From the NCBI RefSeq assembly GCF_000341395.1, contig NC_020304.1, positions 330,001-362,000 of the forward strand: 32,000 nt of DNA, given 5' to 3'. The stretch comes from Desulfocapsa sulfexigens DSM 10523. GTDB lineage: Bacteria > Desulfobacterota > Desulfobulbia > Desulfobulbales > Desulfocapsaceae. The position numbers and the translations under genes are program-made. Below, one piece after another: positions 6,009 through 31,370 of the stretch (position 1 is the stretch's first letter; the number at the start of each line of letters is the position of its first letter). The notes beneath the pieces were generated by a model, which was given only the letters and a program-made list of their open reading frames with translations, did not search any database and was not told where the DNA came from.

Positions 6009-6087
6009 GACATACCTCCGGTGTGAGAAATTATTTGGATTTTTGTGATAGGAGCACTCACGCTATTACAAGGACAATATACACGAA

Positions 6088-6122
6088 TGCCACAATGTGC
6101 CACATTATTGTGATTACCACAA
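6088..6122 (-). promoter_or_regulatory. Operator-like array of CCACA/TGTGG boxes and two palindromes upstream of the dsrE-like gene
   Basis: TGCCACA is directly repeated at 6088-6094 and 6098-6104, giving 10-bp phasing. There is a 6-1-6 palindrome AATGTG-C-CACATT at 6094-6106 and a 5-5-5 palindrome TTGTG-ATTAC-CACAA at 6108-6122. All lie 80-115 nt upstream of ATG 6008. Confidence 0.3.
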
Positions 6123-6364
6123 CTAAAGAAATAACACCAGGAGTGGGAGGTTTGGGAATGCCTCATTTCTGGACAGACACTAGATAGCCACCTTTAATAC
6201 CCGTTAAAGATGGATATTAAAGGCGGAGGATTGTTTACAAAAAAACGAGCTTAGAGCTTAGGGCTAACTCGACTGCTCAGTCATCAGAGACAAACAGGCA
6301 GTCAGGTTCTGGGGATACTGTCTGTCTCATACTGTGCTAACAATGAAGGGATAGAATGATTCTC

Positions 6365-7291
6365 TTAAACCTCTTTAATCCCCTCCAGCTTCCAGTCCTG
6401 CGTGCCAAGCGGCCTTGCCCAACTCCACTCTTCAGCAAATTTCACAGGTTCGGTATCACTGCCTGAAATCAGTTCACCGCTCTCATCATCCACGGTATAA
6501 TCAAGAAGGTTGGCTGTGAAAAGAACGGTCACAAAATCCTCTCCACTTTCAGATCCGGCCGCCACAACTTCAACGTTGCGGATGGATATATTTTCCAGTT
6601 TATTAAGTTCTCCTTTAGATTCCATCTCAGCAAACTGCGCTTGGTATTCTGAGGCAAGCTGCTCACCTAAAAGGTGCCTGTACGAGCTAATATCACGTCG
6701 CATCCAGCCAGCCTGAACCTTAAAAAAAACGTCTGAAGCCACTTCTACAAAATAGTTCGCATCAAAATCGGGATCTGCAATGCGTATGATTTCCAGTCCC
6801 TCCTCCAGGCTCGCTTTTTCCGGTTCCTGGGAGGAAGGTGTAAAACCATGCTGAGTCGGAGAATCCTTGCTGTCAAAGTTACCTCCAAAGACATTGTCAT
6901 TCTGAGGTGGTGCCTGATAGCCCGGAGGAGGACCATTGTAAGGACGTGCAGCAAACCTCCTGTACAGAAAGTAGCCAGCGACGCCAAGAAGGATCAGAGG
7001 AAGCATCCCCATCCCCGAGCCACCCATCCCAAACATGCTGCCCAGCAGCATGCCACCAAGTGCCCCACCAAGCAAACCACCCATCAAACCACGATTCACA
7101 CCTGATTTTTGTTGTGTAGCTGGCTGCTGTTTTTTTGTTACTGGCGCACTCTGTCTTGGTGCAGAGCGAAAAGTTCGACCGCCCATACGGGAGCGCGCAT
7201 CGGCGTACTCTGCCATGATGCCAGCCTCGACAAAACAGAGAGTGAAAAAGACGAGAAAAAAAGGAGTGAGATTCCTCATAACCATGAACAT
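6365..7291 (-). CDS. Tim44-like domain membrane protein
   Basis: It has an N-terminal hydrophobic segment, a Gly/Met-rich TM region (GLMGGLLGGALGGMLLGSMFGMGG) and a Pro/Gln-rich linker. The C-terminal domain is DPDFDANYFVEVASDVFFKVQAGWMRRD...LLDYTVDD..G.........F.E.W.W....DWKLEGI, characteristic of bacterial Tim44-like proteins. The exact start (M1, M3 or M5) is uncertain. Confidence 0.75.
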   Translation of the reverse strand: MFMVMRNLTPFFLVFFTLCFVEAGIMAEYADARSRMGGRTFRSAPRQSAPVTKKQQPATQQKSGVNRGLMGGLLGGALGGMLLGSMFGMGGSGMGMLPLILLGVAGYFLYRRFAARPYNGPPPGYQAPPQNDNVFGGNFDSKDSPTQHGFTPSSQEPEKASLEEGLEIIRIADPDFDANYFVEVASDVFFKVQAGWMRRDISSYRHLLGEQLASEYQAQFAEMESKGELNKLENISIRNVEVVAAGSESGEDFVTVLFTANLLDYTVDDESGELISGSDTEPVKFAEEWSWARPLGTQDWKLEGIKEV

Positions 7292-7519
7292 GTGTTGCCT
7301 CCGAAAAAATTCAAAGAAAAGATAATTACAATGTTTGTGTCATCTGACAGCAGTCTCAGCTTTGCCATCTTTGCTGCAAAGGCTAAGACAGAAAAAAACA
7401 CTTAAGGACGGTCAAAACATTACACGAGACCATCAAATTATGATAGTGTATTCCGAATATGTAAAAACAATACCGACCTATCCCAATAGGTTTTACAAAA
7501 TCATACTACAAGGAAAATA

Positions 7520-7906
7520 ATGTTACGCGACTTATCATTAGCAGCGAAGTCTGCCTGCAGCAAAGAAGACCAGGAATCCTTAATCCCATTAATCATTTCT
7601 CTTAAAGAGCTGGGTGCACAGGCCAAAAAAAGAGGATTTCTCTCACTGGAAGATCAACTTGGAAGTATCACTGACAATTTCCTTAAAATAGGTCTGCAAC
7701 TTATTATTGACCAGACAGAGCCCGAAGTTGTCAGCGATATTCTCGACTCCGACATCTACTATAACGAGTCAAATGGAAGGGAGCTCCTCAAAAAAATTAT
7801 TATTCGAGAAGGGTTACTCCGTATTCAGGCAGGAGATACGTCCAGAAACATTTTTCTCTGCACCAGAATTTTTCTTGGCAAAATTGATAACAGCGCATTT
7901 GCTTAA
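7520..7906 (+). CDS. Small soluble protein resembling the cytoplasmic loop of the MotA/PomA stator subunit (no TM helices)
   Basis: AAGGAAA Shine-Dalgarno sequence. KKRGFLSLEDQLGSITDNFLKIGLQLIIDQTEPEVVSDILDSDI parallels the MotA loop pattern (REGLLSLED......DPFLKKGL.L.VDG.EPE.IRDIL..E.). No hydrophobic segments follow. Confidence 0.5.
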   Translation: MLRDLSLAAKSACSKEDQESLIPLIISLKELGAQAKKRGFLSLEDQLGSITDNFLKIGLQLIIDQTEPEVVSDILDSDIYYNESNGRELLKKIIIREGLLRIQAGDTSRNIFLCTRIFLGKIDNSAFA

Positions 7907-7924
7907 CCACTCTGCGCCCATCAA

Positions 7925-9463
7925 GTGCTCCTGATATTTCCACCGCTCGCCAAGGCCTGCGAACCTCCTGCAGGAATAACTCGTATTGCAGGTTTCCTTC
8001 GCGGAAACAAGCAACGGTGCAGACTCTGGGACGCAAACATCGAGGGACAACTCTATTTACTGGGCTTGCAACAGACCCCCATTGACACCTGGAGCAAAAG
8101 AGCCTGGAAGAACGTTCAACCCAACCTCCAAAACCTCCGCGACACGGCTCTTTATGAAAGCAACGACCGCTATCAGAGGGCTGTACGCGATCTGAACCGG
8201 GCAATCAGCCAGAGCTGCAATGTATCTGCTGTCAACATCAGCCTTGCAGACTATCAGGACAACCAGCTCTCCCCGCATCGGAGCCAGGATCTCCTCCTGG
8301 CTGCCGGAAATTTTCAAAACAGCATCTTCTTTCCCTTTTTTCAAGCACGCCTGAAAGATCTTTTTGCCGAAGCAGACCACCAGCACATCGGTATTTCTCT
8401 CAATTATCTCAGCCAGGCCCTTCCCGCCTTTTGTCTTGCCGGTTTGATCAGAGAGGAATATCCAGACATAACAATCATTGCCGGTGGTGGGTTGGTCACC
8501 TCCTGGTTAAGGAGTCCAGGCTGGAACAATCCATTTACAGAACTCTTTGATCATATGGTAGAAGGACAGGGTGAACTGCCATTATTGGAAATCTTATCCC
8601 CTGACACCCCCTCCAGACACCAGCCACCTGATTTTTCAGACCTTCCTCTCGCCCACTACCTCTCTCCCGGCCTGCTCTTACCCTACAGTGCATCCACTGG
8701 ATGCTACTGGAACCGCTGTTCTTTCTGTCCTGAAAAAGCAGAAGGGAGCCCCTACGCAAAACTTTCCACAAAGCAGGTCATGGAGGACCTGAACTCTCTG
8801 GTCAGCAGACATAAACCACGCCTCATCCATCTCCTTGACAATGCCGTGGCCCCCTCCCTAATGAAGCAGATAATACAGGAACCTCCCGGAGCTGACTGGT
8901 ACGGATTTGCCAGGGTTACTCCAGAGTTGGGGGATCTTAGCTTCTGCAAAAAACTCCAAAAATCAGGCTGTGTTCTTTTGAAACTCGGTATTGAATCCGG
9001 GTCCCAGGAAGTTCTTGATGCAATGGACAAGGGGATCGATCTGACAATGGTCGAAGACAGCCTGAGGGCCCTTCGTCTTGCAGGTATTGCAACCTATGTT
9101 TATCTACTCTTTGGAACGCCGACGGAATCCCATAGCGAAGCACGACAGACCCTCGACTTTACTCAACGCAATGCTGAGGCCATCACGTTCCTGAACCTGG
9201 CAGTCTTTAATCTACCCCATAACAGTAGAGAATCCAGCACACTGCAGCTCCGGGAATTTTCCAGTGGAGATTTGGGGCTCTATTCCGATTTCTACCATCC
9301 CAGAGGATGGGATCGGAAAGCTGTGCGGAATTTTCTCTGCAATGAATTCAGAACGGATCCGACAGTCCGCACCATACTGCAGCGGGATCCGCCATTTTTC
9401 ACATCCAACCACGCTCCACTCATTCTACAGAGTGACGCACGATACAGGGAAGGCAATAAATGA
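7925..9463 (+). CDS. B12-binding-domain radical SAM enzyme (class B-like) with a CX4CX2C cluster motif
   Basis: GTG start gives LLIFPPL, the typical N-terminus of this class. Other motifs are IIAGGG (cobalamin-domain Rossmann), the Cys triad GC-YWNR-C-SF-CPE at nt 8702-8728, and LKLGIESGSQEVLDAMDKG (GxExG SAM motif). The start codon has no clear Shine-Dalgarno sequence, so it is uncertain. Confidence 0.8.
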   Translation: MLLIFPPLAKACEPPAGITRIAGFLRGNKQRCRLWDANIEGQLYLLGLQQTPIDTWSKRAWKNVQPNLQNLRDTALYESNDRYQRAVRDLNRAISQSCNVSAVNISLADYQDNQLSPHRSQDLLLAAGNFQNSIFFPFFQARLKDLFAEADHQHIGISLNYLSQALPAFCLAGLIREEYPDITIIAGGGLVTSWLRSPGWNNPFTELFDHMVEGQGELPLLEILSPDTPSRHQPPDFSDLPLAHYLSPGLLLPYSASTGCYWNRCSFCPEKAEGSPYAKLSTKQVMEDLNSLVSRHKPRLIHLLDNAVAPSLMKQIIQEPPGADWYGFARVTPELGDLSFCKKLQKSGCVLLKLGIESGSQEVLDAMDKGIDLTMVEDSLRALRLAGIATYVYLLFGTPTESHSEARQTLDFTQRNAEAITFLNLAVFNLPHNSRESSTLQLREFSSGDLGLYSDFYHPRGWDRKAVRNFLCNEFRTDPTVRTILQRDPPFFTSNHAPLILQSDARYREGNK

Positions 9464-10710
9464 AAAGACAGACAGTGGTGGTTATTGGTGGAGGTGCTGC
9501 AGGACTTATGGCAGCTGGCCAGGCAGCAATTGCAGGTGCACGGGTAATTCTTCTGGAAAAAATGAAACGGCCGGGACGCAAAATATGTATCAGCGGCAAG
9601 GGGCGCTGCAACATCACAAACAGTGCTCCCGTCGCCGATTTCATCGAACACTTTGGCAAAAACGGCCGTTTTCTGAGACAAGCATTCTCCCGTTTTTTTT
9701 CCACCGAACTTATCACTTTCTTTGAGGAAAACGGCCTTCCGGTGAGCCTTGAACGTGGCGGAAGATACTTCCCCACAAGCGGCAATGCTCCTGATATATT
9801 GAAAATATTCCTTACCTGGCTCACTCAGTTGAACGTTGAAATTCGAGACAGTTGTCCTGCAAAGGATATCCTCGTCACAGACGGTAAGGTTAGTGGAGTT
9901 ACCACGTGCCGGGGCAACATTGACTGCGACAGTGTTATTATAGCCACAGGAGGAGCATCCTATCCTGCAACCGGTTCCACCGGAGACGGTTACACCCTTG
10001 CAAAAAAAATGGGCCACACAATTGTTCCTATTCGACCGGCTCTGGTTCCTCTTGAAGTACAGAATGGCATCCATCCCGCCCTTGCCGGACTTGAACTGAG
10101 AAATATCGGTGTCCAGCTCCTGATCAATGGAAAAAAGAAACAGCAACTCTTTGGGGAACTCCATTTTATAAAAACCGGAGTGAGTGGCCCGACAATCCTG
10201 ACACTCAGTGGTGATGCCGTGGATGCACTGCAAAAGGCGGATAAAGTCCATCTGGCGATAGACTTAAAGGCAGCATTAAGCGAACAAAAGCTCGATGCCC
10301 GCTTAATTCGTGATTTCCAGAAACGGACAAAAGAACACTTTGGAGATGTTTTACGCGGCCTCCTCCCGGCTCAACTGGTACCCTTATGTCTGGAACAGAC
10401 GAACATTCCCGCCAATAGACTGGCTGGCGAGATTTCTAAAAAAGAGCGAAAAACATTGTTACACTGGCTGAAGGATTTACGCCTGGAAGTAAGTGGTCAC
10501 CGCTCCTTTAAAGAAGCGATAGTTACTGCGGGTGGTGTAATGCTCAAAGAGGTGAACCCAAGAACCATGGAATCAGAAATTATACCTGGTTTGTATCTGG
10601 CGGGAGAGGTTCTCGATCTGAATGGCAACACTGGAGGCTATAACCTGCAGGCTGCCTTTTCCACAGGCTGGCTGGCAGGACGTTCAGCAGGAGATGTCCA
10701 AAGCACATAG
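9460..10710 (+). CDS. HI0933/BaiN-family NAD(P)/FAD-dependent flavoprotein
   Basis: ATGA overlap with the radical SAM gene. Motifs are VVVIGGGAAGLMAAG (GxGxxG), ATGGASYPATGSTGDGY and the C-terminal GLYLAGEVLDLNGNTGGYNLQAAFSTG signature of the HI0933-like family. Confidence 0.85.
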   Translation: MKRQTVVVIGGGAAGLMAAGQAAIAGARVILLEKMKRPGRKICISGKGRCNITNSAPVADFIEHFGKNGRFLRQAFSRFFSTELITFFEENGLPVSLERGGRYFPTSGNAPDILKIFLTWLTQLNVEIRDSCPAKDILVTDGKVSGVTTCRGNIDCDSVIIATGGASYPATGSTGDGYTLAKKMGHTIVPIRPALVPLEVQNGIHPALAGLELRNIGVQLLINGKKKQQLFGELHFIKTGVSGPTILTLSGDAVDALQKADKVHLAIDLKAALSEQKLDARLIRDFQKRTKEHFGDVLRGLLPAQLVPLCLEQTNIPANRLAGEISKKERKTLLHWLKDLRLEVSGHRSFKEAIVTAGGVMLKEVNPRTMESEIIPGLYLAGEVLDLNGNTGGYNLQAAFSTGWLAGRSAGDVQST

Positions 10711-10745
10711 ACGGACCCACAGGGGACCAGCCTTGAGTCCGTCTA
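10708..10745. terminator. Inverted repeat between convergent genes (possible bidirectional terminator, no U-tract)
   Basis: A 9-bp perfect stem TAGACGGAC (10708-10716) / GTCCGTCTA (10737-10745) has a 20-nt loop. There is no T-run on either strand, so terminator function is uncertain. Confidence 0.35.
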
Positions 10746-10759
10746 TGAAATAATAGCCA

Positions 10760-11188
10760 CTATGCAATCGCAACAAGTTCCAGATCAAAGGTGAGATCTT
10801 TGCCTGAAAGGGGAGGGTTGGCATCGAGCACAATGAAGTCATCGGTCAGATCAATCACCTCAACGGCCATCAGTTCACCAGCCGCTCCACCCACCTGAAG
10901 CTTTTGGCCAATTTCAGGTTTTAAATCTGGTGGTATCTGATCTTTTGGTACCTGCATTACCAGCTCCGCATTATGTTTTCCATAGGCATCATCCATTGGA
11001 ATTTTAACGGTTTTCCTGGAACCAACTTCCATTCCGACAAGAGCTGCATCAAATCCCGGAATCACCGTTCCTGAGCCAAGAACCACATCCAATGGTTTCT
11101 TGCCCTCGGATGAGTCGAAAATTGTACCGTCATCAAGATATCCCTTATAGTTCACCTGAACTTTGTCACCTTTTTTTGCCTGTGTCAT
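10760..11188 (-). CDS. FKBP-type peptidyl-prolyl cis-trans isomerase (SlyD/FkpB-like, with IF insert, no His-rich tail)
   Basis: GDKVQVNYKGYLDDGTIFDSS....PL.VVLGSG.VIPGFD.AL.GMEVG..K.V.IP...AYG and the C-terminal LSGKDLTFDLELV are typical of this family. Confidence 0.85.
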   Translation of the reverse strand: MTQAKKGDKVQVNYKGYLDDGTIFDSSEGKKPLDVVLGSGTVIPGFDAALVGMEVGSRKTVKIPMDDAYGKHNAELVMQVPKDQIPPDLKPEIGQKLQVGGAAGELMAVEVIDLTDDFIVLDANPPLSGKDLTFDLELVAIA

Positions 11189-11269
11189 AAAAATCCTCTT
11201 TTTGTTTAAGTTATTCTATATGTGATGAATTTGTATTTTTTCAAAGGAAAGCACCCTAGCATATCCCGC

Positions 11270-11797
11270 TTAAAAATGATAGAAGGTATCTGGAACTTGT
11301 CTGATTATGGATTGACAGATATCAGAAACAGATCGGTCATTACAATCAATAATAAGATCGGCATTTTGGGTGTAGAGGGGTTGACGTTCTGCAAAAACTT
11401 CAGCAAAAGTCTGATCGGCTGTTTTAACAAAGGCACGACTGCTGAAATCTCCAACCCGCTGTTTCAACGTTGCGAGTCCGACGTCGAGCAGGATCAGCAG
11501 ACTGCTCCTTCGCAGGTGACTGATACCGGCCTGGCCATAAATTGCACTGCCACCCGTTGCAATAACATACTTTCTAAAATCCATAGAAAGCATGGTCTGC
11601 TCTTCCAACCTGCGGAAATTCTGAACACCAAGATCGTTCAGTACTTCCTGCAATGGCAAACCCCTGTCTTTTTCGATAAGGGTATCTACGTCGACAAAGG
11701 CAAGACCAAGGAGATCAGCAAGTTTTCTGCCGACGGTACTTTTTCCGGCTCCAGCCATGCCGATCAGAACAATATTTGTTTTTTTACTATTTTCCAT
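11270..11797 (-). CDS. aroK: Shikimate kinase
   Basis: From internal ATG 11797 the product reads MENSKKTNIVLIGMAGAGKSTVGRKLADLLGLAFVDVD..IE (Walker A plus the shikimate-kinase pattern). The 71-aa N-terminal extension of the track ORF (to 12010) is antisense to arfB and has no homology logic. An alternative start is 11845. Confidence 0.8.
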   Translation of the reverse strand: MENSKKTNIVLIGMAGAGKSTVGRKLADLLGLAFVDVDTLIEKDRGLPLQEVLNDLGVQNFRRLEEQTMLSMDFRKYVIATGGSAIYGQAGISHLRRSSLLILLDVGLATLKQRVGDFSSRAFVKTADQTFAEVFAERQPLYTQNADLIIDCNDRSVSDICQSIIRQVPDTFYHF

Positions 11798-11834
11798 AAC
11801 CAAAATTCTAATAATCTCATCGTACGTCTCTATT

Positions 11835-12248
11835 ATGTTACGCATTGCCGACAATGTAAGTATTCCTGAACAAGAAATCGAGCTAAAATTTATCCGCGCC
11901 CAGGGAGCAGGGGGGCAGAACGTCAACAAAGTCGCCTCTGCCGTACATATGCGCTTTGATATTGCAGCATCTTCCCTTCCGGAAAGAGTAAAAGACAGAC
12001 TCCTGGCCATGCGGGATCAGCGAATAAGCAAAGAAGGTATCCTTGTGCTTAAGGCGCAGCAGTACCGAAGTCAGGAAAAGAATAAAGAAGATGCTCTGCA
12101 ACGCCTGAAGGAAATAATCTTTCGTGCCATGATGCAGTCAAAAAAACGTCGCCCTACCCGACCCGGAAAGGCAGCAAAAAAACGACGACTCGAAGGAAAA
12201 AAACAACGTGGACAACTCAAAGCTGCACGAAAAAAAGTTCACTACTGA
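11835..12248 (+). CDS. arfB: Alternative ribosome-rescue factor ArfB (YaeJ), peptidyl-tRNA hydrolase
   Basis: From ATG 11835 the product reads MLRIADNVSIPEQEIELKFIRAQGAGGQNVNKVASAVHMRFDI.ASSLPE. It has the GGQ motif and a Lys/Arg-rich C-terminal tail (KKRRPTRPGKAAKKRRLEGKKQRG). It is colinear with E. coli ArfB. Confidence 0.9.
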   Translation: MLRIADNVSIPEQEIELKFIRAQGAGGQNVNKVASAVHMRFDIAASSLPERVKDRLLAMRDQRISKEGILVLKAQQYRSQEKNKEDALQRLKEIIFRAMMQSKKRRPTRPGKAAKKRRLEGKKQRGQLKAARKKVHY

Positions 12249-21343: not shown

Positions 21344-21414
21344 GTCTGCTACCCTCTACCAGATTCTTCCTGCCGGGAAACCCGGCTCAGCTCGCCTGGG
21401 ACGAACTTAATATG

Positions 21415-21455
21415 AAATAAAAAAATAAGGAGCCACAGTTTTCTGCAACTCCTTA
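21415..21455 (-). terminator. Rho-independent terminator 72 nt upstream of the fusA-paralog start codon
   Basis: The minus strand reads UAAGGAGUUGCAG-AAAA-CUGUGGCUCCUUA followed by UUUUUUUAUUU. The 13-bp stem has 3 G.U pairs that become A.C on the plus strand, so it is minus-strand specific. Confidence 0.75.
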
Positions 21456-21738
21456 CTCAACAATTTAAACAGACCAAAAATACTTTTTCTGCCAGATTCA
21501 CTAAAATATCCGGGAGATTAAGCACTTCAAATCCCCCCTCAAGACCATTCATGGCAAGAAAAAACTCCCAATGATACCCTATTTGCCATTTCAAGGGAAG
21601 TTTTTTTTTCCCTATCCCCAAGGCAACCCTTTTCAACACGCGCTCTGCCCCTATTTCTTGACTTTTCAACCCATTCTCTCATAACCTTACAATAGCAAAC
21701 AAGAAATCCCGTTTACCAAGAGAAGAAAAGTGGCCTTT

Positions 21739-23784
21739 ATGCAAGACATCATGACTATCTGTAATTACTGTGGCTGCGGCTGCGGCGTGTATCTTCGTGT
21801 CGAAGAGGGCCTTGTTGTGGGTTCTCACCCCAGCAGAAGTCACCCCATCAGTCGTGGTAATCTCTGTTCCAAGGGATGGCACCTTCATGAATTTATCCAC
21901 TCTCACAAACGACTGAAAGAACCATTACTCAGGCAAAACGGCATACTTCAAGAGGTAAGCTGGGATGAAGCTCTGGATTTTACTGCCGCAGCACTTCTCC
22001 ATGCAAAAGAAACAACCGGTCCCGACAGCATAGGTGTGCTTTCGAGCGCAAAATGCAGTAACGAAGAAAACTATCTCCTCCAGAAACTCACCCGGGCCGG
22101 GCTCGGCACCAACAATATTGATCACTGCGCACGACTCTGACATTCTTCCACTGTGGTAGGTCTTGCCACAAGCTTTGGATCCGGTGCCATGACAAATTCC
22201 ATTGGTGAACTCATTGATGCCGACGTCCTTCTCATCACCGGTTCCAATACCACGGAGACCCACCCTCAGATTGGCCGTAATATATTAGAAGCTGTGGATC
22301 GCGGGGCAAAACTGCTCGTCATCGATCCACGCAAAACAGATATTGCCAGACAGGCTGATATCCATCTTGCACTCCGTCCGGGAACCGATATTGCCCTGAT
22401 CAATGCCATGATGCGTATCATCCTTGACGAAGATCTTGCCGACGATCTTTTTATCTCCATGCGCACGGAGAATTTCATCGCTCTTCGTGACTATCTCCAT
22501 CGTCTTGATCTTGATGAGCTGGCACGCATCACAGAAATCGACCGTGCCACAATCCGCGAAGCTGCCTGCATCTACGCCAGAAGCAGCAAATCCGTTATCT
22601 GCTACTGCCTTGGAGTCACTCAACATACCTGCGGCACTGATAATGTTCAGGCCGTGGCCAACCTTGCCATGCTCACCGGCAATGTCGAAAAAAAGCATAG
22701 TGGGGTTGATCCCCTTCGTGGCCAGAACAACGTTCAGGGTGCCTGTGATATGGCAGCACTTCCAGCGGTATTGCCTGGCTATCAAAGCCTTGCCGACCTT
22801 GAGGTGCAAAAGCGTTTTCGAGATGTCTGGAAGCATGACGTCCCGACTACTCCCGGAAAAAGCCTGACAGAAATGACCCATTCTGGAAAAGATGGAGCCA
22901 TTAAAGCCATGTTTATCATGGGCGAAAACCCGGCACTCAGCGATCCCCACTTGAACCGTGTGAAAACCACCCTGGAGAATCTCGACTTTCTGGCAGTATC
23001 CGACATATTTCTCACTGAAACGGCACAGCTCGCCGATGTGGTTTTTCCTGCCGCCTCCTTTGCTGAAAAGGGTGGCACCATCACCAACTCCGAACGAAGG
23101 GTACAGATTTGCCGACGTGCCATTCCCCCCATCCACAATTGTCGCCCTGACAGCCACATCATCATGGATCTCGGAAAACGTATTGGCTGCCCCGGCATGG
23201 ACTTTGACAGCGATGCCGAAATAATGGAAGAGATCAGTCTGCTCACCCCCATCTATGGAGGCATGCATCACGACAGACTTGCCCGGAACCACGGCCTGCA
23301 ATGGCCCTGCCTTGATCGGAATCATCCCGGCACCGAATTCCTTCACAAGTATTATTTCGCCAGGGGAAAAGGCCGGTTCACCATCACCAGACACCAGGAG
23401 CCCTACGAGAAGACAGAAAAGAAATACCCATTCACCCTCGTCACCGGCCGTGGCTCCTATCACCACTATCACACGGCAACCATGAGCAGAAATTCCAAAC
23501 GACTGGTACGAGAATATCCGCTGGCTTTGCTTGAAATCAACAGAGCAGACTGTGAAAAATTGCAACTGAAAGACGGCGAGACCGTTGAACTCAGCTCAAA
23601 ACGCGGGACAGTGCGGATAACCACTCAGGTCACCGATCGCGTCAAACCAGGTACTGTCTTTTCCTCCTTCCACTTTTTTGAAGTTCCCATCAATGAGCTC
23701 ACCGTTGATGCCATGGATCCGAAATCAAAATGCCCGGAATTTAAAGTCTGTGCAGTACAACTCAAAAAGGTGGCTCATGATTGA
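21739..23784 (+). CDS. fdhA: Selenocysteine-containing formate dehydrogenase catalytic subunit (FdhF/FdhA-type, cytoplasmic, Mo/W-bisPGD)
   Basis: Track ORFs 21730..22140 and 22153..23784 are in the same frame and are separated only by TGA 22138-22140. The joined product reads [30 protein letters not shown], the canonical FDH active-site Sec context. The N-terminal CNYCGCGC is a 4Fe-4S motif. RGQNNVQGACDMAALP matches E. coli FdhF. There is no Tat signal. The start is ATG 21739, or GTG 21730. Confidence 0.9.
22147..22179 (+). promoter_or_regulatory. Bacterial SECIS hairpin for the fdhA UGA
   Basis: The stem starts 10 nt after the UGA: CUGUGG (22151-22156) / CCAC-A-AG (22166-22172, one bulged A). 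The apical loop UAGGUCUUG contains GGUCU, as in the E. coli fdhF SECIS loop. A lower extension pairs UCCA 22147-22150 with UGGA 22176-22179. Confidence 0.7.
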
Positions 23785-24826
23785 TTTAAAAGAGCTGATT
23801 CTGAGCAAGGACAACCTCTATCCGCTGCTGCGTAAACTAAGGAAGGAAGCCCGACTCATTGCACCGGTAAAAAACGAACACGGGGACACCCTCTTCAGAC
23901 CTGTTGGCGACATAGATACAACGGATATCGATCTGGAAAATCAGCCACAGGAATCTCTCAAACCTTTCTTCCTTCCCCAACAGGAAACACTTACCGGATA
24001 CACAATTAACAAGGGTGAGTACAGTTTCAGCCCGCCGCCCCCTGCCAAGAACACCATCTTCTTTGGTGTCAGATCCTGTGATCTTACTGCCCTTCTCTAC
24101 ATGGACCTTATTTTTTCCAAACCATTCAAAGACGCCACCTATTTTGACAGGCGTAACCATTCACTCATAATTACCCTGGGCTGCAACCAGCCATTTGCCA
24201 ACTGCTTTTGCGAAGCCACGGGCAGCGGTCCATACCTGGAATACGGCTATGGCCTCCAATTTATTGACATTGGAGATCGCTACTACGTCTCGGCAGGTAG
24301 GGGGAAAGGAGCCGACCTCCTTAACAAATGGAGTTATTTTTTTCGTGAAGTTGAGGAAGAAGATCAAAATCGTCGATACCAGCTCTTTCTCGAAGCCCGG
24401 GGACAGTTCACCAGAAATATCCAGGTGCCCCATGCCTGCCGAAAGCTGCAGCAGGAACCTGTGGCTGAAGCAATATGGGAAAAACTCTCCAGCCGTTGCT
24501 ATGATTGTGGCGGCTGCGCCTATGTCTGTCCCACATGTACCTGTTTTTCTGTGGATGACAAACCACAGGACAACAACAGCGGAATCCGGGTTCGAAGCTG
24601 GGACGCCTGCACCAGTAGTGGTTTTACCAGAATGACTGGAGGCCACAATCCTGTCGACCGCACCCGCCATGCCCTGAAAAGACGTTTTCTCCATAAACTG
24701 AAGCATGATTTTGCAAGTCACGGGAAAGCCTCCTGTACTGGGTGTGGACGCTGCATAGATATCTGTTTTGGTGGTGTCGACATCACCACTTTTATTGAGT
24801 TGTTCACACAGCAGGAGAAACCATGA
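23777..24826 (+). CDS. AsrA/HydB-like iron-sulfur subunit (anaerobic sulfite reductase A / sulfhydrogenase beta family)
   Basis: ATG 23777 has AAGGTGG upstream and overlaps the fdhA stop by 8 nt. It has two ferredoxin-type motifs, CYDCGGCAYVCPTC and CTGCGRCIDIC, plus an N-terminal CNQPFANCFC. Confidence 0.75.
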   Translation: MIDLKELILSKDNLYPLLRKLRKEARLIAPVKNEHGDTLFRPVGDIDTTDIDLENQPQESLKPFFLPQQETLTGYTINKGEYSFSPPPPAKNTIFFGVRSCDLTALLYMDLIFSKPFKDATYFDRRNHSLIITLGCNQPFANCFCEATGSGPYLEYGYGLQFIDIGDRYYVSAGRGKGADLLNKWSYFFREVEEEDQNRRYQLFLEARGQFTRNIQVPHACRKLQQEPVAEAIWEKLSSRCYDCGGCAYVCPTCTCFSVDDKPQDNNSGIRVRSWDACTSSGFTRMTGGHNPVDRTRHALKRRFLHKLKHDFASHGKASCTGCGRCIDICFGGVDITTFIELFTQQEKP

Positions 24827-25659
24827 ATAAAAATTTCATTCCTGCCCAGGCCATCATCCGGGAAATTATCCGGGAAAATGAACAGATCGCCACATTTCGT
24901 CTGGAACTGACGAACAAGCGTCTCCCCTTCACCTTTCTTCCCGGCCAGTTTCTTATGCTCTCGGTACCCCATTGTGGGGAGGCGGCCATATCCATCTCAT
25001 CTTCACCGGACAGGCTGCCACTCGTAGATCTCTCTATTCGCAGGGCCGGTGAACTCACGACAGCCATCCACGGAATGAAAAAAGGAGATCAGGTCGGAAT
25101 ACGAGGCCCCTTTGGTAAGGCCTTTCCCATCGAAGACTTTGCGAACCGGGATCTCCTCTTTGTAGCCGGAGGAATTGGTCTGGCTCCGCTCAAAAGCGTC
25201 ATTGACCACTGCCTTTTTCAGAGCGGTCTTGAGGAAGACGCGGTGCAGAGCATCACCCTCCTCTACGGCAGCAGAACACCGTCAGATATCGCCTTCAAAC
25301 AGGCGATAGAGTCGTGGCAGAAGCAGGGAGTGGATTGCAGACTAACGGTGGACGAAAAAGACAGCACCTGGAACGGCCATGTGGGGCTGGTAACAGAACT
25401 ACTCACAGATGTCACCATAACCGGCAACACGAAGGCCCTTGTCTGCGGCCCCCCCATCATGATCCGCTTTGTCATTGCCAGCCTTGCCGATCTGGGCTGT
25501 GGCGACGAGTCAATTTTCACAACTCTCGAACGCCATATGAAATGCGGCATGGGGATTTGCGGGCACTGCCATCTGGACGGCAGGCTGATCTGTCTTGATG
25601 GCCCGGTTTTCAATGTGAGTCAGTTAAAAAAACTTGATGTAATGGAGTTTGCCAGATGA
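24823..25659 (+). CDS. AsrB/PyrK/HydG-like FAD/NAD(P)-binding [2Fe-2S] oxidoreductase subunit
   Basis: ATGA overlap and an AGGAGAAA Shine-Dalgarno sequence. It has an FNR-like fold (PGQFLML.V, RRAGELT, GPFG, LFVAGGIGLAPL, CGPPIM) and a C-terminal CGMGICGHC....C 2Fe-2S motif. Confidence 0.8.
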   Translation: MNKNFIPAQAIIREIIRENEQIATFRLELTNKRLPFTFLPGQFLMLSVPHCGEAAISISSSPDRLPLVDLSIRRAGELTTAIHGMKKGDQVGIRGPFGKAFPIEDFANRDLLFVAGGIGLAPLKSVIDHCLFQSGLEEDAVQSITLLYGSRTPSDIAFKQAIESWQKQGVDCRLTVDEKDSTWNGHVGLVTELLTDVTITGNTKALVCGPPIMIRFVIASLADLGCGDESIFTTLERHMKCGMGICGHCHLDGRLICLDGPVFNVSQLKKLDVMEFAR

Positions 25660-27647
25660 ATACAACACAGGAAACCAGCACTGTTACCTTTCTTCCTGCC
25701 AATAAAAGTATCACAGTGAAAAACAGAAGCACTCTTATGGAGGCAGCCAGGACAGCTGGCGTACATATCAACGCATCCTGCGGTGGTGCAGGGGTCTGCG
25801 GAAAATGCCGGGTAATTATTGAGCAGGGCATGGTGACAGGTGGAGAAAGTGAAAAGCTCTCAGCTACAGAATATGTGCGGGGCTACCGACAGGCATGCAC
25901 GGCAGAGATCAGTCATGACATCACCGTACGCGTTCCTGAAGAATCAGGACGCCAGAAAGGGGGATTAAGTACTGACATTCCCCTTCGCCACCATGCCCGT
26001 ATGCACGTCTTTAATATTGATGAACTCAAGGAGGCAGGCATCTTCTACCCACCGGTGGAAAAACTCTGTCTGGAACTCTTGAAACCTGATGCAAACGACA
26101 ATCGGGCCGATGTAGGACGTCTGATCCAGGGCCTGGCTGATCAGCACAACAAGCATCGACTTGTCACCGGCCTTCCCGTTATGCGGAAAATCAGAGCTGC
26201 ACTGCGGGAAAAAAATTTTCTGGTCACGGTAACCCTGGAACAACCCGTGAACAACAAATCAAAGAGTCACCTCCTTAACATTCAACCGGGCAGATGGGAT
26301 CACCGCAACTTCGGCCTTGCCATTGATATTGGCACCACCACCATCCATGGAGTTTTAATCGATCTTTACAGTGGCAAGATCCTGGCTAAGGATTCCTGCT
26401 ATAATCCTCAAATGAGCTATGGTGAAGATGTCATTTCACGAATCATCTACGCTGAAAAGCCAAAAGGCCTTGCCATGATGCAGGATCTGGTGGTGGAAGC
26501 TATCAACACGCTTATTGGAAACATGCTCAACAAAGCTGTCCCCCCAGAGAATAGCGGCCATGGTGCCATAAGCCGGGATGAAATTAACTCCATCACCATC
26601 GCTGGTAACACCACCATGACCCATCTGCTCCTGCAACTGGAGCCAGACAATATCAGACGTTCCCCCTATGTCCCTGTTTCCACATTTTTTCCTCCCCTGC
26701 GTGCAGCCGACCTCGGGATTGAGTTGCCGCAACACTGTGTATCCCTCCTCTTTCCTGCAATATCAAGCTATGTGGGTGGTGACATCGTGGCGGGAGTCAT
26801 GGGATCCGGTATGTACCGTACAGAACTACTCACCCTGTTTATCGATGTGGGCACCAATGCGGAAATTGTTATCGGCAACAGGGAATGGCTTGCCTGTGCC
26901 GCCTGTTCGGCGGGGCCTGCCTTTGAGGGAGGAGGAATCACCCACGGCATGCGGGCAGTGGAAGGTGCCATCAGTGATTTCAGCCTCAACCCTGAAACCC
27001 TTGAGCCAATGAATGTAACCGAGGGCAACAAGGCTCCCATCGGTATCTGCGGTTCTGGTCTTCTTATCATTGTCGCCACCCTCTTTGAACACGGCGTCCT
27101 CAACCAGAGCGGAAAATTTAACGACCTTGACTCATCCCGCATTCGCAAAGGACGAAGCGGTATGGAGTATGTACTGGCCTGGGAAGATGAATGTGCTGCA
27201 GGTCATGACATCGTGCTCAACGAAGTGGACATCGACAACTTTATCCGGGCAAAAGCGGCAATCTTTGCCGGGGTTTCGACCCTCATGGAACAGGTGGGGC
27301 TGGAGGTGGGTGACCTTGAACAGGTTATCCTGGCCGGAGGCTTCGGTTCTTTTATCGACCTTGACAGCGCCATGACCGTGGGTCTGCTGCCGGAGATAGA
27401 TCCTGACACAATTCTCTACGTGGGAAACGGCTCTCTGATGGGTGCCTGGATGAGTGAACTCTCCAACCATATCCGCCAGGATGTGGTTTCAGTGGTACGC
27501 AAGATGACAAGTTTTGAACTCTCGGAAGTCCCCAGCTTTAAGGATCAGTATGTGGCATCCATATTCCTGCCCCATACCGACCTCAGTCTTTTTCCCGGTG
27601 CTATGCAGCGAAGAGCTGCACGGACCCCACCCTCTATCCCACGGTAA
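25656..27647 (+). CDS. [2Fe-2S] ferredoxin-ASKHA (DUF4445/COG3894, RACo/RamA-like) ATP-dependent reductive activase homolog
   Basis: ATGA overlap with the asrB-like gene. The N-terminal plant-type ferredoxin motif is ASCGGAGVCGKCRV...C. The ASKHA/DUF4445 hallmarks are AIDIGTTTIHGVLIDL.SG, NPQMSYGEDVISRIIYA, IAGNTTMTHLLL, DVGTNAEIV and GFGSFIDL. Confidence 0.8.
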   Translation: MNTTQETSTVTFLPANKSITVKNRSTLMEAARTAGVHINASCGGAGVCGKCRVIIEQGMVTGGESEKLSATEYVRGYRQACTAEISHDITVRVPEESGRQKGGLSTDIPLRHHARMHVFNIDELKEAGIFYPPVEKLCLELLKPDANDNRADVGRLIQGLADQHNKHRLVTGLPVMRKIRAALREKNFLVTVTLEQPVNNKSKSHLLNIQPGRWDHRNFGLAIDIGTTTIHGVLIDLYSGKILAKDSCYNPQMSYGEDVISRIIYAEKPKGLAMMQDLVVEAINTLIGNMLNKAVPPENSGHGAISRDEINSITIAGNTTMTHLLLQLEPDNIRRSPYVPVSTFFPPLRAADLGIELPQHCVSLLFPAISSYVGGDIVAGVMGSGMYRTELLTLFIDVGTNAEIVIGNREWLACAACSAGPAFEGGGITHGMRAVEGAISDFSLNPETLEPMNVTEGNKAPIGICGSGLLIIVATLFEHGVLNQSGKFNDLDSSRIRKGRSGMEYVLAWEDECAAGHDIVLNEVDIDNFIRAKAAIFAGVSTLMEQVGLEVGDLEQVILAGGFGSFIDLDSAMTVGLLPEIDPDTILYVGNGSLMGAWMSELSNHIRQDVVSVVRKMTSFELSEVPSFKDQYVASIFLPHTDLSLFPGAMQRRAARTPPSIPR

Positions 27648-27658
27648 AATAAAACACC

Positions 27659-29440
27659 ATGCGCATACTCATCCTCGAAGACTCCAAAGCCAGCAGGGTG
27701 CTGCTGGAAGCCCGCCTCAACAAAGCAGGCCATACAACTCAATCTGCAGTCAACGGCCGTCAGGGGTTCTTCCTGGCAACATCCAGACAGTACGACGCAA
27801 TCATCAGTGATCTCAATATGCCCGGCTGGGATGGTTTCAAATTTATTGAAGCCATGAAGGTTGTCTGTCCCCGAATTCCCATTATTGTTATAACCGGATC
27901 TGCCAACGAACCAGACACCAAAGAACGTCTTCTTTCCTTCGAAATGGTTATCGGAGTCTTTGGAAAACCGTTTGACTTCGATAAAATCAATGTGCTGCTC
28001 AGCCAGTTAAAAGGGCAAAGCAACAGCTCGGTCAGCAAAATGGCAAGGATCGTCGCAACCATCGGGCCTGCAAGCAACAGTAAAGAAATTCTCGGCAAAA
28101 TGATCGTGGCGGGGATGGATGTGGCAAGACTGAATTTTTCCCACGGAACCCACGAGGAGCACGGCCAAACTCTCGCAAACATTCGTGCCGCCGAGACCGA
28201 ATGGGGAAAACCGATCGCCGTCCTGCAGGATCTCTGTGGACCAAAAATCCGCACCGGACAGATGGAAAAAAATGGTGTACAGCTAACGGTCGGGAAGACT
28301 GTCATTATCCAGGCCGATGAAACAGTCGGGACCGCCAGTCGCTTTTCAACCATTGCTCCCGAAATCCTGATCGATCTCCGGGAGGGCGACCCAATACTGC
28401 TTGACGATGGCCTACTGGAACTGAAGGTTACAAAAGAAGGTGCCAGGGAAGTCCTCTGTAAAATTATTGTGGGTGGCATTTTAAAATCCAGCAAAGGAAT
28501 TAACCTCCCCATGACCCAGCTTTCTCTTCCATCGGTCACTGAAAAGGATAAGCGTGACCTGGCATGGGGACTTGACCACTCCATTGATTATGTGGCCCTC
28601 TCCTTTGTCCGTTCTGCAGCGGAAATTCGTGACATAAAAAAAATCATTGCCGCATCCGGTAAAAGAGATATCCGGGTTATTGCCAAAATTGAAAAACCTG
28701 AAGCAGTGGAGCATATAACAGACATTATCGAGGCTGCCGATGCCATCATGATTGCCCGTGGTGACATGGGGATTGAGCTTCCTGCCGCCCGGGTTCCACG
28801 AATCCAACAGGAAATAATCAACCTCTGCTGGCAACAGAACACACCCGTTATAACTGCCACCCAGATGCTTGATTCCATGACTGCAAACACAATACCAACA
28901 CGGGCTGAAGTGACAGATGTCTCTGTGGCCATCAAAGAAGGAACCGATGCCGTAATGCTTTCCGGCGAAACAGCTGCCGGAAAGGATCCGGTAAATGTGG
29001 TACGAACCATGGCCTCAATTATCACCGAAGAAGAACAGTATCAGTTCAAAGATCCCTTTGAAAATATAAAGGATGACACAACAAGGGCTAACCCTGCAAT
29101 CACCGCAGCAGCCAACCTTCCCGGTGTGGTACTGACAATGCTACTGGACGCACGGGGTGTACTCTACCAGCAGTTGTCAAAGTACAGCCGTAACGAGCCT
29201 AATATCCTGGTGACACGGTCACTCCATGTTGCCAGACATTCAAGCCTTTACAAGAACCTGGTGCCTATCATTATACGAGATGACATTCCACGTGATGAAG
29301 TTGTTTTCAAGGCCATGGGTATAGCAAAAGAGTGGGGGTACTTGAAGACAGGTGACATTTTTGCTGTGGTTGAAGGTGAACGCCTGACCCAGGGAGGGAT
29401 CCCACAGACAGGTGCATTCCAGCTCATCACCGTTAGCTGA
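27659..29440 (+). CDS. pyk: Response-regulator receiver domain fused to a complete pyruvate kinase
   Basis: Residues 1 to about 120 form a REC domain: ILILEDS acidic pocket, phospho-acceptor D51 in IISDLNMPGWDG, VITGS, and the conserved Lys in GKPF. From M128 (nt 28040) there is a full PK: ARIVATIGPAS, MDVARLNFSHG, GPKIRTG, YVALSFVRSA, VIAKIE, MIARGDMGIELP, ITATQMLDSM, PTRAEVTDVSVAI.EGTDAVMLSGETAAGK, plus a C-terminal regulatory domain. Confidence 0.9.
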   Translation: MRILILEDSKASRVLLEARLNKAGHTTQSAVNGRQGFFLATSRQYDAIISDLNMPGWDGFKFIEAMKVVCPRIPIIVITGSANEPDTKERLLSFEMVIGVFGKPFDFDKINVLLSQLKGQSNSSVSKMARIVATIGPASNSKEILGKMIVAGMDVARLNFSHGTHEEHGQTLANIRAAETEWGKPIAVLQDLCGPKIRTGQMEKNGVQLTVGKTVIIQADETVGTASRFSTIAPEILIDLREGDPILLDDGLLELKVTKEGAREVLCKIIVGGILKSSKGINLPMTQLSLPSVTEKDKRDLAWGLDHSIDYVALSFVRSAAEIRDIKKIIAASGKRDIRVIAKIEKPEAVEHITDIIEAADAIMIARGDMGIELPAARVPRIQQEIINLCWQQNTPVITATQMLDSMTANTIPTRAEVTDVSVAIKEGTDAVMLSGETAAGKDPVNVVRTMASIITEEEQYQFKDPFENIKDDTTRANPAITAAANLPGVVLTMLLDARGVLYQQLSKYSRNEPNILVTRSLHVARHSSLYKNLVPIIIRDDIPRDEVVFKAMGIAKEWGYLKTGDIFAVVEGERLTQGGIPQTGAFQLITVS

Positions 29441-29654: not shown

Positions 29655-31370
29655 ATGAGTACTTTTTTAAGCAAAATCTCGAAACTTGATTCAATTCAAG
29701 ATGTAGCTCTTCTGTCAAACCAGGGCGAAACTCTTTTCTTTGATCAAAAAAACAACACACCGGGAGACAGAGAAAGAGCATCTTCATACTGGAATGAGAT
29801 CATTTCAGACTTAGATCAGCCTCAAATGGCTGAATTTGCGTTTACCAATGGAAGATACTATCTCACCCGCACCCCCATCGGCTATCTGATCATCGGATTA
29901 AAAAATGATAAGGCTCTCGAAAAAATCAAGCAGGCCTGCGCGACCATTCTCACAAAACTCTCCAACCCGGCACTCTGCAAACGACTCCTTTTAAACCTGT
30001 TGACTCAGTCTGAGGATATTCTCAAACCAAACATCATAAGAGAACTGCTTCCCTATGCTGATGAGGAAGTCGCGACTGTTCTTATGTTTCTTCTTCGCAG
30101 GGAAAAGGAGATCGCTCCACTGGTCAAGGAAGAACTGCTGCTGTTGATTTGCCAGACACTCGGATACTGTTCTAACAATGATGCTATAGCTGTTTTGAAA
30201 GCCTTTCTGGCCAGCCGTAAAAGCGGAGTAAACACTCCAGGCGAACAGGTCATAGAAGCAGTAAGGATATCCATAGAACAACTTGAACAGAACCATCCTC
30301 CCAAAACACAGGATGGCCTGCAGAAAGCGCCATCTCCTGGGGTCAGGAAAACAGTTCAAGCAGATATCCCCCAGCAACAACAGATTGATGAACTCCTTAA
30401 CAGGGGGAAGAAAGACGAAGCAGTTGCGCTGATAATGCAGCTCATTGAGCAGTGCGCTGGCAAAAAACAGTTTGAAGCTGCAGATCGATTACGTGACTAC
30501 CTTATTAAAATCAACCCCATGGCGTTGCTTGAAATCATTCGTGCTGCAGATGTGATTGAAGGGGCAAAACAGTCAGGGATAGATAAAAAACACCTGGAGA
30601 CCTGGAGTAAACTAACGGAGATTTTCAGTAGTGAGGAGTTTTCAGCACTCTACCATGCCATGGCTCTGAGAAGTTACACAAAGGGGAAAACAATAGTACA
30701 GCAGGGCTCCACCGCCAGAACACTCCTTTTCATCAACGGTGGCCAGGTACAGCTTCAGGCACTTAATCAGGACACATTGATACCATTGAGTGTGAAGGGA
30801 GCAGGAGAAATTATCGGAATAGAAACATTTTTTCAGGCCTCAGTCTGGACGGATCAGGCTAAAAGTCTTGGTTGCGAGGTCTTTTTACTTTCACGGCAAA
30901 AACTTGACGCCCTCAAGGAACAGCACCCCTCTCTCGAACCAAAATTATCCGACTTCTGCGCCAGCTTCCAGTCGGTTAGTGCAGAATTGACAAAAACCGG
31001 CAGAAACAGAAGGCAATTCAAAAGAAAAAATGTATCGGGAAGAATCAGTTTTGCCGTTCTTAACACAAACGGCACGGAAATCACCACAGAAGCAAAGGGA
31101 GATCTTATTGATATTTCAACGGGCGGAGTGGCGTTTTCCATCCACTCATCCCAGAAGAAGAATGCTGCCGCCCTATTTGGTCGTCAACTCAGAATTAGCT
31201 TCCAGACTACGACAACAACACAGATTATCATTCGGAGAGGAACAGTACAGGCCGTTCGAGATATAGATCTTATCGGAAATGAATACTCCCTGCACCTGGA
31301 ATTCAGCGAACAGTTGAGCTATTCAGAGTTGCAACAGATAGCCGGAGCGTCTCCAGAAGCCAGGTCCTGA
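29655..31370 (+). CDS. Multidomain signalling protein: Roadblock-like N-terminus, helical repeat region, cyclic-nucleotide-binding domain, C-terminal PilZ domain
   Basis: The PilZ motifs are RRQFKRKNV (RxxxR) and DISTGGVAF (DxSxxG) near the C-terminus. The cNMP-binding-like beta-barrel is ...KGKTIVQQGSTARTLLFINGGQVQLQ...GAGEIIGIETFF. The N-terminal 100 aa resemble a Roadblock/LC7 fold, which is a weaker call. Confidence 0.75.
   Translation: MSTFLSKISKLDSIQDVALLSNQGETLFFDQKNNTPGDRERASSYWNEIISDLDQPQMAEFAFTNGRYYLTRTPIGYLIIGLKNDKALEKIKQACATILTKLSNPALCKRLLLNLLTQSEDILKPNIIRELLPYADEEVATVLMFLLRREKEIAPLVKEELLLLICQTLGYCSNNDAIAVLKAFLASRKSGVNTPGEQVIEAVRISIEQLEQNHPPKTQDGLQKAPSPGVRKTVQADIPQQQQIDELLNRGKKDEAVALIMQLIEQCAGKKQFEAADRLRDYLIKINPMALLEIIRAADVIEGAKQSGIDKKHLETWSKLTEIFSSEEFSALYHAMALRSYTKGKTIVQQGSTARTLLFINGGQVQLQALNQDTLIPLSVKGAGEIIGIETFFQASVWTDQAKSLGCEVFLLSRQKLDALKEQHPSLEPKLSDFCASFQSVSAELTKTGRNRRQFKRKNVSGRISFAVLNTNGTEITTEAKGDLIDISTGGVAFSIHSSQKKNAAALFGRQLRISFQTTTTTQIIIRRGTVQAVRDIDLIGNEYSLHLEFSEQLSYSELQQIAGASPEARS

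Follow-up and report, generated by a model that had tools for sequence, protein, structure and literature searches.

Several described systems resemble parts of the locus considered here. Pyridine-nucleotide-coupled formate dehydrogenases (FDHs) of the FdsABG type, such as that of Rhodobacter capsulatus (6TG9), use a NuoE/NuoF-type diaphorase, while a beta/gamma-type diaphorase module links NAD(P)(H) to the [NiFe] alpha/delta subunits in the soluble hydrogenase I (sulfhydrogenase I) of Pyrococcus furiosus (9NEZ) and to the siroheme protein AsrC in the Salmonella AsrA/AsrB system. A 2025 study of Desulfurivibrio dismutans AMeS2 reported that the gene for a cytoplasmic FdhA (RS03135) is accompanied by HydB- and HydG-like genes while hydrogenase subunits are missing, and proposed that these proteins hand electrons from NAD(P)H to FdhA for the CO2 reduction that opens the methyl branch of the Wood–Ljungdahl pathway (PMC12142623). 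The last of these systems is RACo (AcsV) of Carboxydothermus hydrogenoformans (3ZYY, 4C1N), the activator of CoFeSP, whose Ser398 ligates Co(II) in the RACo–CoFeSP complex (PMC4934906). The locus analysed here, a block of five same-strand (+) genes at 21739-29440 of a 32-kb window of Desulfocapsa sulfexigens DSM 10523 (the whole stretch of 32,000 nucleotides, positions 330,001 to 362,000 of contig NC_020304.1), combines relatives of these systems: a selenocysteine (Sec)-containing fdhA, a beta-like and a gamma-like electron-transfer subunit, a RACo/AcsV-like activator and a fusion of a receiver domain with pyruvate kinase (REC-PK). The fdhA-beta-gamma-RACo order is conserved across Desulfobulbales, a new finding of this analysis, and the block is read here, with a probability of roughly 0.6, as a Wood–Ljungdahl accessory operon in which an NAD(P)H-linked Sec CO2 reductase/FDH and a CoFeSP activator would be co-expressed for autotrophy, with REC-PK appended.

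The conservation of this order was followed from both of its ends. Starting from RACo, 80 loci whose RACo orthologs are 61-90% identical were obtained when one genome per species was scanned, and 64 of them carried sufficient upstream sequence to be informative. All but one of the 80 loci came from Desulfobulbales or from unclassified Desulfobacterota/Proteobacteria metagenome-assembled genomes (MAGs), with Desulfocapsa, Desulfurivibrionaceae, Desulfobulbaceae and cable bacteria among the groups represented. The single outlier (L079; 63% identity), on a contig of 4.6 kb and low coverage that had been binned into a Promethearchaeota (Asgard) MAG, most probably stems from contamination of that bin by a Desulfobulbales genome, and the comparison covers this one bacterial order. 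A complete fdhA-beta-gamma cassette lies directly upstream of RACo at 23 of the 64 informative loci, and at four more the cassette is there and truncated by the contig end; a different FDH operon takes this place at one locus (L039), and 36 loci have no FDH upstream of RACo. The cassette-bearing loci are spread through every major clade of the RACo tree. On the cassette side, a search based on three beta-like homologs (54-60% identity) gave five loci extending beyond the cassette, and RACo was found downstream in all five, one of which (L088, 1489-13875) has two unrelated inserted genes, DUF2157 and DUF4824, that separate RACo from the gamma-like gene.

The surroundings of the cassette vary, with an EF-G paralog as neighbour in Desulfocapsa and peptidase M28 and NIL-Fer4 genes in other lineages, including Desulfurivibrio dismutans. 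Despite these changed flanks, the cassette, when present, always lies directly upstream of RACo, apart from the two genes intervening in L088. The fdhA/beta junction is overlapping in 20 of the 23 full cassette loci, the gamma/RACo junction varies between an overlap of 25 nt and a gap of 273 nt, and start/stop overlaps are retained down to about 60% protein identity. The initial annotation had put forward fdhA-asrA-asrB-DUF4445-(REC-)pyk as a possible syntenic unit, DUF4445 being the RACo-like protein, and had considered that its restriction to this genome would speak against it. Such a restriction is not observed, as the first four genes keep their order in many Desulfobulbales genomes from several families; the part of the proposal that does not carry over is the inclusion of REC-PK.

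The divergence of the encoded proteins and one replacement event bear on how this order arose. Pairwise divergences of FdhA and RACo are strongly correlated (Pearson 0.90), and those among the three cassette proteins even more so (Pearson 0.93-0.97, Spearman 0.77-0.89), whereas pairs that include RACo covary more loosely than pairs within the cassette (Spearman 0.54-0.68). Given the correlated divergence of FdhA and RACo, the simplest history is an ancestral four-gene cluster in which RACo was retained and the cassette repeatedly lost. In L039, from an uncultured member of the Desulfobulbaceae (4957-11959), a soluble FDH operon of another kind ends 36 nt before the RACo ortholog; it encodes a NuoE-like 2Fe-2S protein, a NuoF-like FMN/NADH subunit and a Sec-FdhA fused to a NuoG-like domain, so that an FdsABG/NuoEF-type operon fills the slot upstream of RACo. 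Because a non-homologous FDH type stands at the same place, this arrangement suggests that selection, beyond mere inheritance, has favoured the joint expression of RACo and a pyridine-nucleotide-linked FDH. The same locus carries a second FdhA-like gene further upstream.

The domain identities initially assigned to the five proteins are each upheld by Pfam. FdhA contains the Molybdop_Fe4S4, Molybdopterin and Molydop_binding domains, and its read-through product, with U read as C, passes TIGR01591 (771.5 bits against a cut-off of 666.25). Its best PDB relatives are the F420-FDH alpha subunit 9T1S (E=4e-193), the FdhF of hydrogen-dependent CO2 reductase (7QV7) and a chain of another FDH (7BKB_D), and the protein is predicted to be the catalytic subunit of a cytoplasmic FdhF-type formate dehydrogenase/CO2 reductase. 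The in-frame TGA of fdhA sits in the motif HCARL-U-HSS and is kept in 24 of the 24 homologous fdhA genes recovered, and an Rfam SECIS_3 match, sub-threshold at 31.4 bits (E=7.8e-5), begins at this codon; together, motif, conservation and match identify it as a genuine selenocysteine codon. The fold energy of the 63 nt 3′ of the TGA was no better than that of shuffled sequences (z=0.43). The FdsABG of R. capsulatus belongs to the same FDH-alpha superfamily (E=5e-141) and is likewise coupled to pyridine nucleotides, but the FdhA of the window has neither the NuoG-like extension at its N-terminus nor NuoE/F partners, and is accompanied by the beta/gamma module instead.

This module is formed by a beta-like poly-[4Fe-4S] protein with a Fer4_22 domain, 100% identical to UWK_00301, whose sole PDB match is the beta subunit of P. 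furiosus sulfhydrogenase I (9NEZ_B, E=9e-38), and by a gamma-like protein with FAD_binding_6, NAD_binding_1 and DHODB_Fe-S_bind domains, whose top PDB match is the corresponding gamma subunit (9NEZ_C, E=5e-50). The Pyrococcus hydrogenase and the Salmonella AsrA/AsrB proteins share the folds of the pair and are its best structural and sequence relatives. However, both proteins fall below the cut-offs of the named families, the beta-like protein scoring 155 bits against NCBIfam HydB (cut-off 750) and 155 bits against AsrA (TIGR02910, cut-off 323), and the gamma-like protein 217 bits against AsrB (TIGR02911, cut-off 288.6) and 170 bits against HydG (cut-off 650). Neither AsrC nor any other gene with a sulfite-reductase domain was found in the window, and the Pfam search of the window likewise gave no [NiFe] hydrogenase alpha or delta subunit gene. 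The earlier label "AsrA/AsrB-like" is thus apt for the resemblance and not for family membership. As judged from these comparisons, the pair functionally resembles a diaphorase module while belonging to neither named family; its role is likely that of its relatives, to link NAD(P)(H) to a catalytic subunit, but the catalytic partner here would be an FdhF-type molybdo- or tungstoenzyme and not the [NiFe] alpha/delta subunits of Pyrococcus or the siroheme AsrC of Salmonella.

The fourth protein shows the four domains of C. hydrogenoformans RACo in the same order, all above the Pfam cut-off (Fer2 16-83, RACo_linker 125-214, Raco_middle 219-388 and RACo_C_ter 392-647), and its residues 10-648 align with the CoFeSP activator 3ZYY (E=2e-150, 505 bits). 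The ferredoxin cysteines (C-x5-C-x2-C) of the [2Fe-2S] cluster and the ASKHA motifs DIGTTT, DVGTN and GGFG are kept, and Ser418 aligns with the cobalt-ligating Ser398 of the C. hydrogenoformans protein within the motif C-S-A-G-P-A-F-E-G. It scores 634 bits against the NCBIfam AcsV model (NF040756), over positions 2-632 of 632, and 116 bits only against RamA (TIGR04270). By these measures, it is closely related to the characterised CoFeSP activator over its whole length. The two differ in genomic setting, since the protein described here is encoded outside an acs/CoFeSP cluster, either downstream of an FDH operon or alone, and in a C-terminal tail that extends about 15 residues past the 3ZYY alignment.

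The initial annotation had observed that neither the block nor its immediate surroundings contain a corrinoid or methyltransferase target gene, and this holds for the entire 32-kb window, in which genes for corrinoid proteins, methyltransferases and CODH/ACS subunits are all missing. The reading of the block as a module without a target, however, is not supported at the level of the genome. D. sulfexigens is an autotroph with a complete acetyl-CoA (Wood–Ljungdahl) pathway, including CODH (UWK_03164) and ACS (UWK_03163), and CODH activity has been measured in it (PMC3739170). A corrinoid target would therefore be present in the genome, with CoFeSP, the natural target of RACo, presumably encoded about 2,860 locus tags away.

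Under the accessory-operon reading, the block would consist of three separable pieces, namely the FDH cassette, the RACo/AcsV-type activator and REC-PK. FdhA and the beta/gamma-like pair probably form a soluble heterotrimer in which NAD(P)H would reduce the gamma-like subunit at its FAD and [2Fe-2S] cluster and electrons would be used for CO2 reduction, in a reaction that may be reversible. The RACo-like ATPase would use its own [2Fe-2S] cluster and ATP to re-reduce Co(II) that arises by accidental oxidation in the distantly encoded CoFeSP. The cassette and RACo would be co-transcribed and co-expressed because both serve autotrophic CO2 fixation, whereas REC-PK, a putative phosphorylation-controlled pyruvate kinase isoenzyme, would have arrived behind RACo only in the D. 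sulfexigens lineage and would have no mechanistic tie to the other four genes.

This reading extends one already published for a related organism. The D. dismutans cluster (P0N66_RS03135-03125; L069) is orthologous to the one described here (58% identity for FdhA, 51% for the beta-like, 49% for the gamma-like and 63% for the RACo-like protein), and the same NAD(P)H-dependent CO2-reducing role has been proposed for it (PMC12142623); the D. sulfexigens version differs in its tighter gene overlaps and in the additional REC-PK gene. The initial view that no characterised system has this composition is thus only partly sustained: the FdhA-HydB-HydG trio has been published and interpreted, while its RACo neighbour goes unmentioned in the main text of that paper, where the words "ASKHA" and "corrinoid" are absent and RS03120 is listed only in the supplementary protein table (PMC12142623). 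RS03120, the RACo ortholog, begins 5 nt downstream of the HydG-like gene, while the Wood–Ljungdahl cluster of D. dismutans (RS08740-08760) encodes the CoFeSP subunits and has no ASKHA gene of its own, which favours the accessory-operon reading. The literature searched contained no paper that combines DUF4445 with formate dehydrogenase, gave only irrelevant papers for a sulfhydrogenase- or AsrA/AsrB-type form of FDH and only the genome paper for the UWK locus tags, and the proteomic studies of other sulfur-disproportionating organisms had nothing on these genes. In D. dismutans, FdhA and the HydB-like protein were reported to be about 3-fold up in autotrophic sulfur disproportionation, with log2 fold changes in the proteome table of +1.59 for FdhA (RS03135), +1.51 for the HydB-like protein (RS03130), -0.10 for the HydG-like protein (RS03125) and +0.86 for RS03120 (PMC12142623).

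Several observations weigh against the accessory-operon reading. The four D. dismutans proteins are out of step with one another in these values, the trio is low in abundance, and the main CO2 reductase of that organism is thought to be FdhAB-HdrL, encoded within the Wood–Ljungdahl cluster (PMC12142623). On the side of the activator, the RACo-like protein stays below the curated AcsV cut-off (634 against 800 bits), no acs or CoFeSP gene was found near RACo at any of 129 loci, and no acsB was found near RACo orthologs in 1.8 Mb of loci, the latter a weak negative, obtained with a Moorella AcsB query. The D. dismutans genome holds two further ASKHA proteins as well as HgcA and a small corrinoid protein. 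Since a relative thus carries at least two further ASKHA paralogs together with other corrinoid candidates, CoFeSP is to be regarded as the putative target of the RACo-like protein.

The first alternative to the accessory operon concerns a direct partnership between its two parts. RACo is not known to have a defined physiological (in vivo) electron donor, and the FDH with its beta/gamma pair might be that reductant, electrons passing from formate or NAD(P)H through the gamma- or beta-like subunit to the RACo [2Fe-2S] cluster and from there, with ATP, to Co(II)-CoFeSP. The start/stop overlap between the gamma-like gene and RACo, overlaps or short gaps at many orthologous loci, the presence of RACo downstream of every intact cassette examined and the second, unrelated NAD-linked FDH directly upstream of RACo in L039 would all agree with such a route. 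The potential of the RACo [2Fe-2S] cluster, -340 mV (PMC4934906), could moreover be reached by NAD(P)H or formate.

The two parts are, however, readily found apart. RACo is solitary in cable bacteria, Thiovibrio and many others, and in two loci of the Desulfocapsa clade (L009 and L011) the EF-G paralog lies directly beside RACo with the cassette cleanly missing. Conversely, two long metagenome contigs (L092 and L093) keep EF-G, fdhA, the beta- and gamma-like genes and REC-PK intact next to a decayed RACo. The remnant in L092 (L092:7633-8000) is a 119-aa open reading frame (ORF) that retains about 30 N-terminal residues and the last 120 or so at 48% identity, that of L093 is alike, and both represent a natural internal deletion of RACo. 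As RACo stands without the cassette in 36 of the 64 loci, and the cassette persists beside a decayed RACo, the units are separable, and neither strictly requires the other in cis, which also argues against the self-contained five-gene module that had initially been envisaged.

Together with the looser covariation of RACo with the cassette and the two genes that intervene in L088, this separability makes the FDH-beta/gamma an unlikely reductant of RACo, although it argues against an obligate partnership and not against a facultative one. Its most specific form, in which the beta/gamma part of the FDH, once reduced by NAD(P)H or formate, would bind to the mobile [2Fe-2S] domain of RACo and supply it with electrons as its donor, is somewhat more doubtful again. 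If it were true, CO2 reduction and the repair of the cobalt methyl carrier would share one low-potential electron entry point, and the recruitment of a NuoEF-type FDH in L039 would represent a second, independent solution to the same need.

A further possibility is that the adjacency was simply inherited, an ancestral FDH operon having come to lie beside a housekeeping RACo with no functional link between them and with the compact junctions reflecting genome streamlining. The independent loss of cassette and RACo and the D. dismutans protein levels that do not move together fit this account, and as all loci come from one order, their conservation may be largely vertical. On the other hand, the order persisted through complete changes of its flanks (EF-G in Desulfocapsa, peptidase M28/NIL-Fer4 in other lineages), the start/stop overlaps have survived considerable protein divergence, a non-homologous FDH type has taken the same position in L039, and the functions of FDH and RACo meet in one pathway. 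Mere inherited adjacency is for these reasons judged distinctly improbable, and the accessory operon is retained as the preferred reading.

The choice of CoFeSP as the target may likewise be challenged, since the RACo-like protein could instead act on the Mo/W centre of the FDH, on HgcA or on a small MtaC-like corrinoid protein. The score under the curated AcsV cut-off, the lack of an adjoining CoFeSP gene at any locus and the other corrinoid proteins and several ASKHA paralogs of relatives would be in line with such a target. This is nevertheless very unlikely, given the four-domain RACo architecture, the full-length match of 505 bits to a CoFeSP-specific activator, the conserved cobalt-ligating serine and the persistence of RACo without an FDH neighbour in most loci; in addition, the targets listed for RACE-type ATPases are corrinoid proteins only, with no molybdo- or tungstoenzyme among them (PMC7317905).

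The fifth gene stands apart from the other four. REC-PK matches the Pfam families Response_reg (62 against 30 bits), PK and PK_C, scores 482 bits against TIGR01064 (cut-off 306) and aligns over residues 127-584 with the full-length pyruvate kinases 2E28, 3T05 and 1PKY, while inspection of its receiver domain revealed the acidic pocket E7/D8, the phospho-acceptor D51, T79 and K103. Its sequence is thus that of a complete pyruvate kinase with a receiver domain, and it is one of the three pyruvate kinases of D. sulfexigens (UWK_00304; PMC3739170). A metagenome scan found about 30 full-length orthologs, and the gene lies directly behind RACo only in L001, L005, L090 and L091, that is, in D. sulfexigens and close relatives. 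It is lacking in L004, where RACo is 90% identical and is followed by a gene for a cyclic-nucleotide-binding/PilZ protein, and is missing from every more distant cassette locus, while about 25 orthologs (55-81% identity) occur in varied, unrelated contexts with no FDH or RACo nearby. Given this distribution, the fusion is older than its position here, and its placement in the block is recent and lineage-specific.

The initial annotation had combined all five genes into one self-contained machine, in which REC-PK would provide RACo with local ATP on a signal, a proposal in whose favour stand only the 11-nt spacing and the shared orientation seen in D. sulfexigens and close relatives. Contradicted by the synteny comparison, and at odds with the retention of REC-PK beside a decayed RACo in L092 and L093, the two further pyruvate kinases of the organism (PMC3739170) and an 11-nt gap with no recognisable Shine-Dalgarno sequence, this machine can be set aside as almost certainly wrong: a signal-gated local ATP supply for RACo finds no comparative support, and a new five-component energy module is not supported.

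The architecture of the block itself agrees with the initial description, all frames, ORF coordinates and junctions having been verified (Table 1). The genes are tightly packed, with an 8-nt overlap between fdhA and the beta-like gene (23777-23784, CTCATGATTGA), ATGA overlaps between the beta- and gamma-like genes (24823-24826) and between the gamma-like gene and RACo (25656-25659), both just preceded by GGAG, and an 11-nt gap between RACo and REC-PK (27648-27658, AATAAAACACC). The claim that no hairpin plus T-tract lies inside the block needs some qualification, as weak plus-strand matches to the terminator consensus occur within coding sequence (24769-24788 and 27332-27348); the total number of matches, however, is no higher than in shuffled sequences (13 found against 13.0 expected), and no convincing internal terminator was found. 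No Rfam family reached its gathering score anywhere in the window, which includes the absence of a Moco/Tuco riboswitch ahead of fdhA, and the promoter of the operon presumably lies within the divergent intergenic region upstream of this gene.

Table 1. Features of the five-gene block and its upstream region (window coordinates)
Feature	Coordinates	Strand	Description
Divergent intergenic region, EF-G paralog (-) / fdhA	21344..21738	.	395 nt
fdhA	21739..23784	+	681 aa; ATG 21739, TGA ends 23784; FdhF-type, Sec-containing
Sec codon and SECIS-like hairpin	22135..22193	+	TGA 22138-22140; sub-threshold SECIS_3
beta-like (HydB/AsrA-like) poly-[4Fe-4S] subunit	23777..24826	+	349 aa; UWK_00301; Fer4_22
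gamma-like (HydG/AsrB-like) FAD/NAD(P)H/[2Fe-2S] subunit	24823..25659	+	278 aa; Pfam
RACo/AcsV-like activator	25656..27647	+	663 aa; TAA 27645-27647; Pfam, 3ZYY
receiver::pyruvate kinase fusion (REC-PK)	27659..29440	+	593 aa; UWK_00304; TGA ends 29440

Within the intergenic region, the first 125 nt or so beside EF-G (21344-21470) are 82-88% conserved among relatives, including loci without the fdh cassette, and this stretch is therefore assigned to EF-G. It matches no Rfam family and contains a hairpin on the minus (EF-G) strand (21458-21423), whose 16-bp stem leads into a T-run and which might serve this second EF-G gene as leader or attenuator. A 60-aa ORF at 21457-21639 (-), called as a gene on an identical Logan contig, was rejected, as relatives with about 80% DNA identity carry a frameshift in it, and it is probably not a real gene. 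Downstream of the block, the gene at 29655-31370 (+) encodes a protein of 571 aa that carries a PilZ domain at its C-terminus in addition to a cyclic-nucleotide-binding domain, and this gene is the conserved 3′ neighbour in close relatives with or without REC-PK (L004, L090-L093).

Other neighbours were recorded at individual loci and elsewhere in the window. Ahead of the L088 cassette lie genes for GAPDH and for a PPDK_N/PEP-utilizer protein of 1410 aa, a second instance of a PEP/pyruvate enzyme beside the cluster. In one clade of RACo loci (L056, L070, L072, L073 and L075), a conserved neighbouring gene, whose product joins an N-terminal "putative Fe-S cluster" domain (PF04060) to DUF3786, lies two genes upstream of RACo on the opposite strand, and a YgiQ-like radical SAM gene and two MreB/actin-like genes lie downstream. 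At the beginning of the window, two adjacent half-size YeeE/YedE-type "Sulphur transport" genes (2644-3803, +) and a nearby DsrE-like gene (5511-6008, -) are candidates for sulfur trafficking in this sulfur disproportionator.

The locus bears on the biology of the Desulfobulbales in several ways. An FDH wired to NAD(P)H through a module of the sulfhydrogenase beta/gamma type would be a biochemically uncharacterised form of the enzyme, and it would offer a compact, possibly NADPH-linked CO2 reductase to carbon fixers living at the thermodynamic edge, as in sulfur disproportionation. As the Desulfobulbales activator lies outside the acs cluster, annotation pipelines that rely on acs-cluster context would miss it. 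Finally, its position directly behind a pyridine-nucleotide-linked FDH provides a concrete, testable candidate for the in vivo electron source of RACo.

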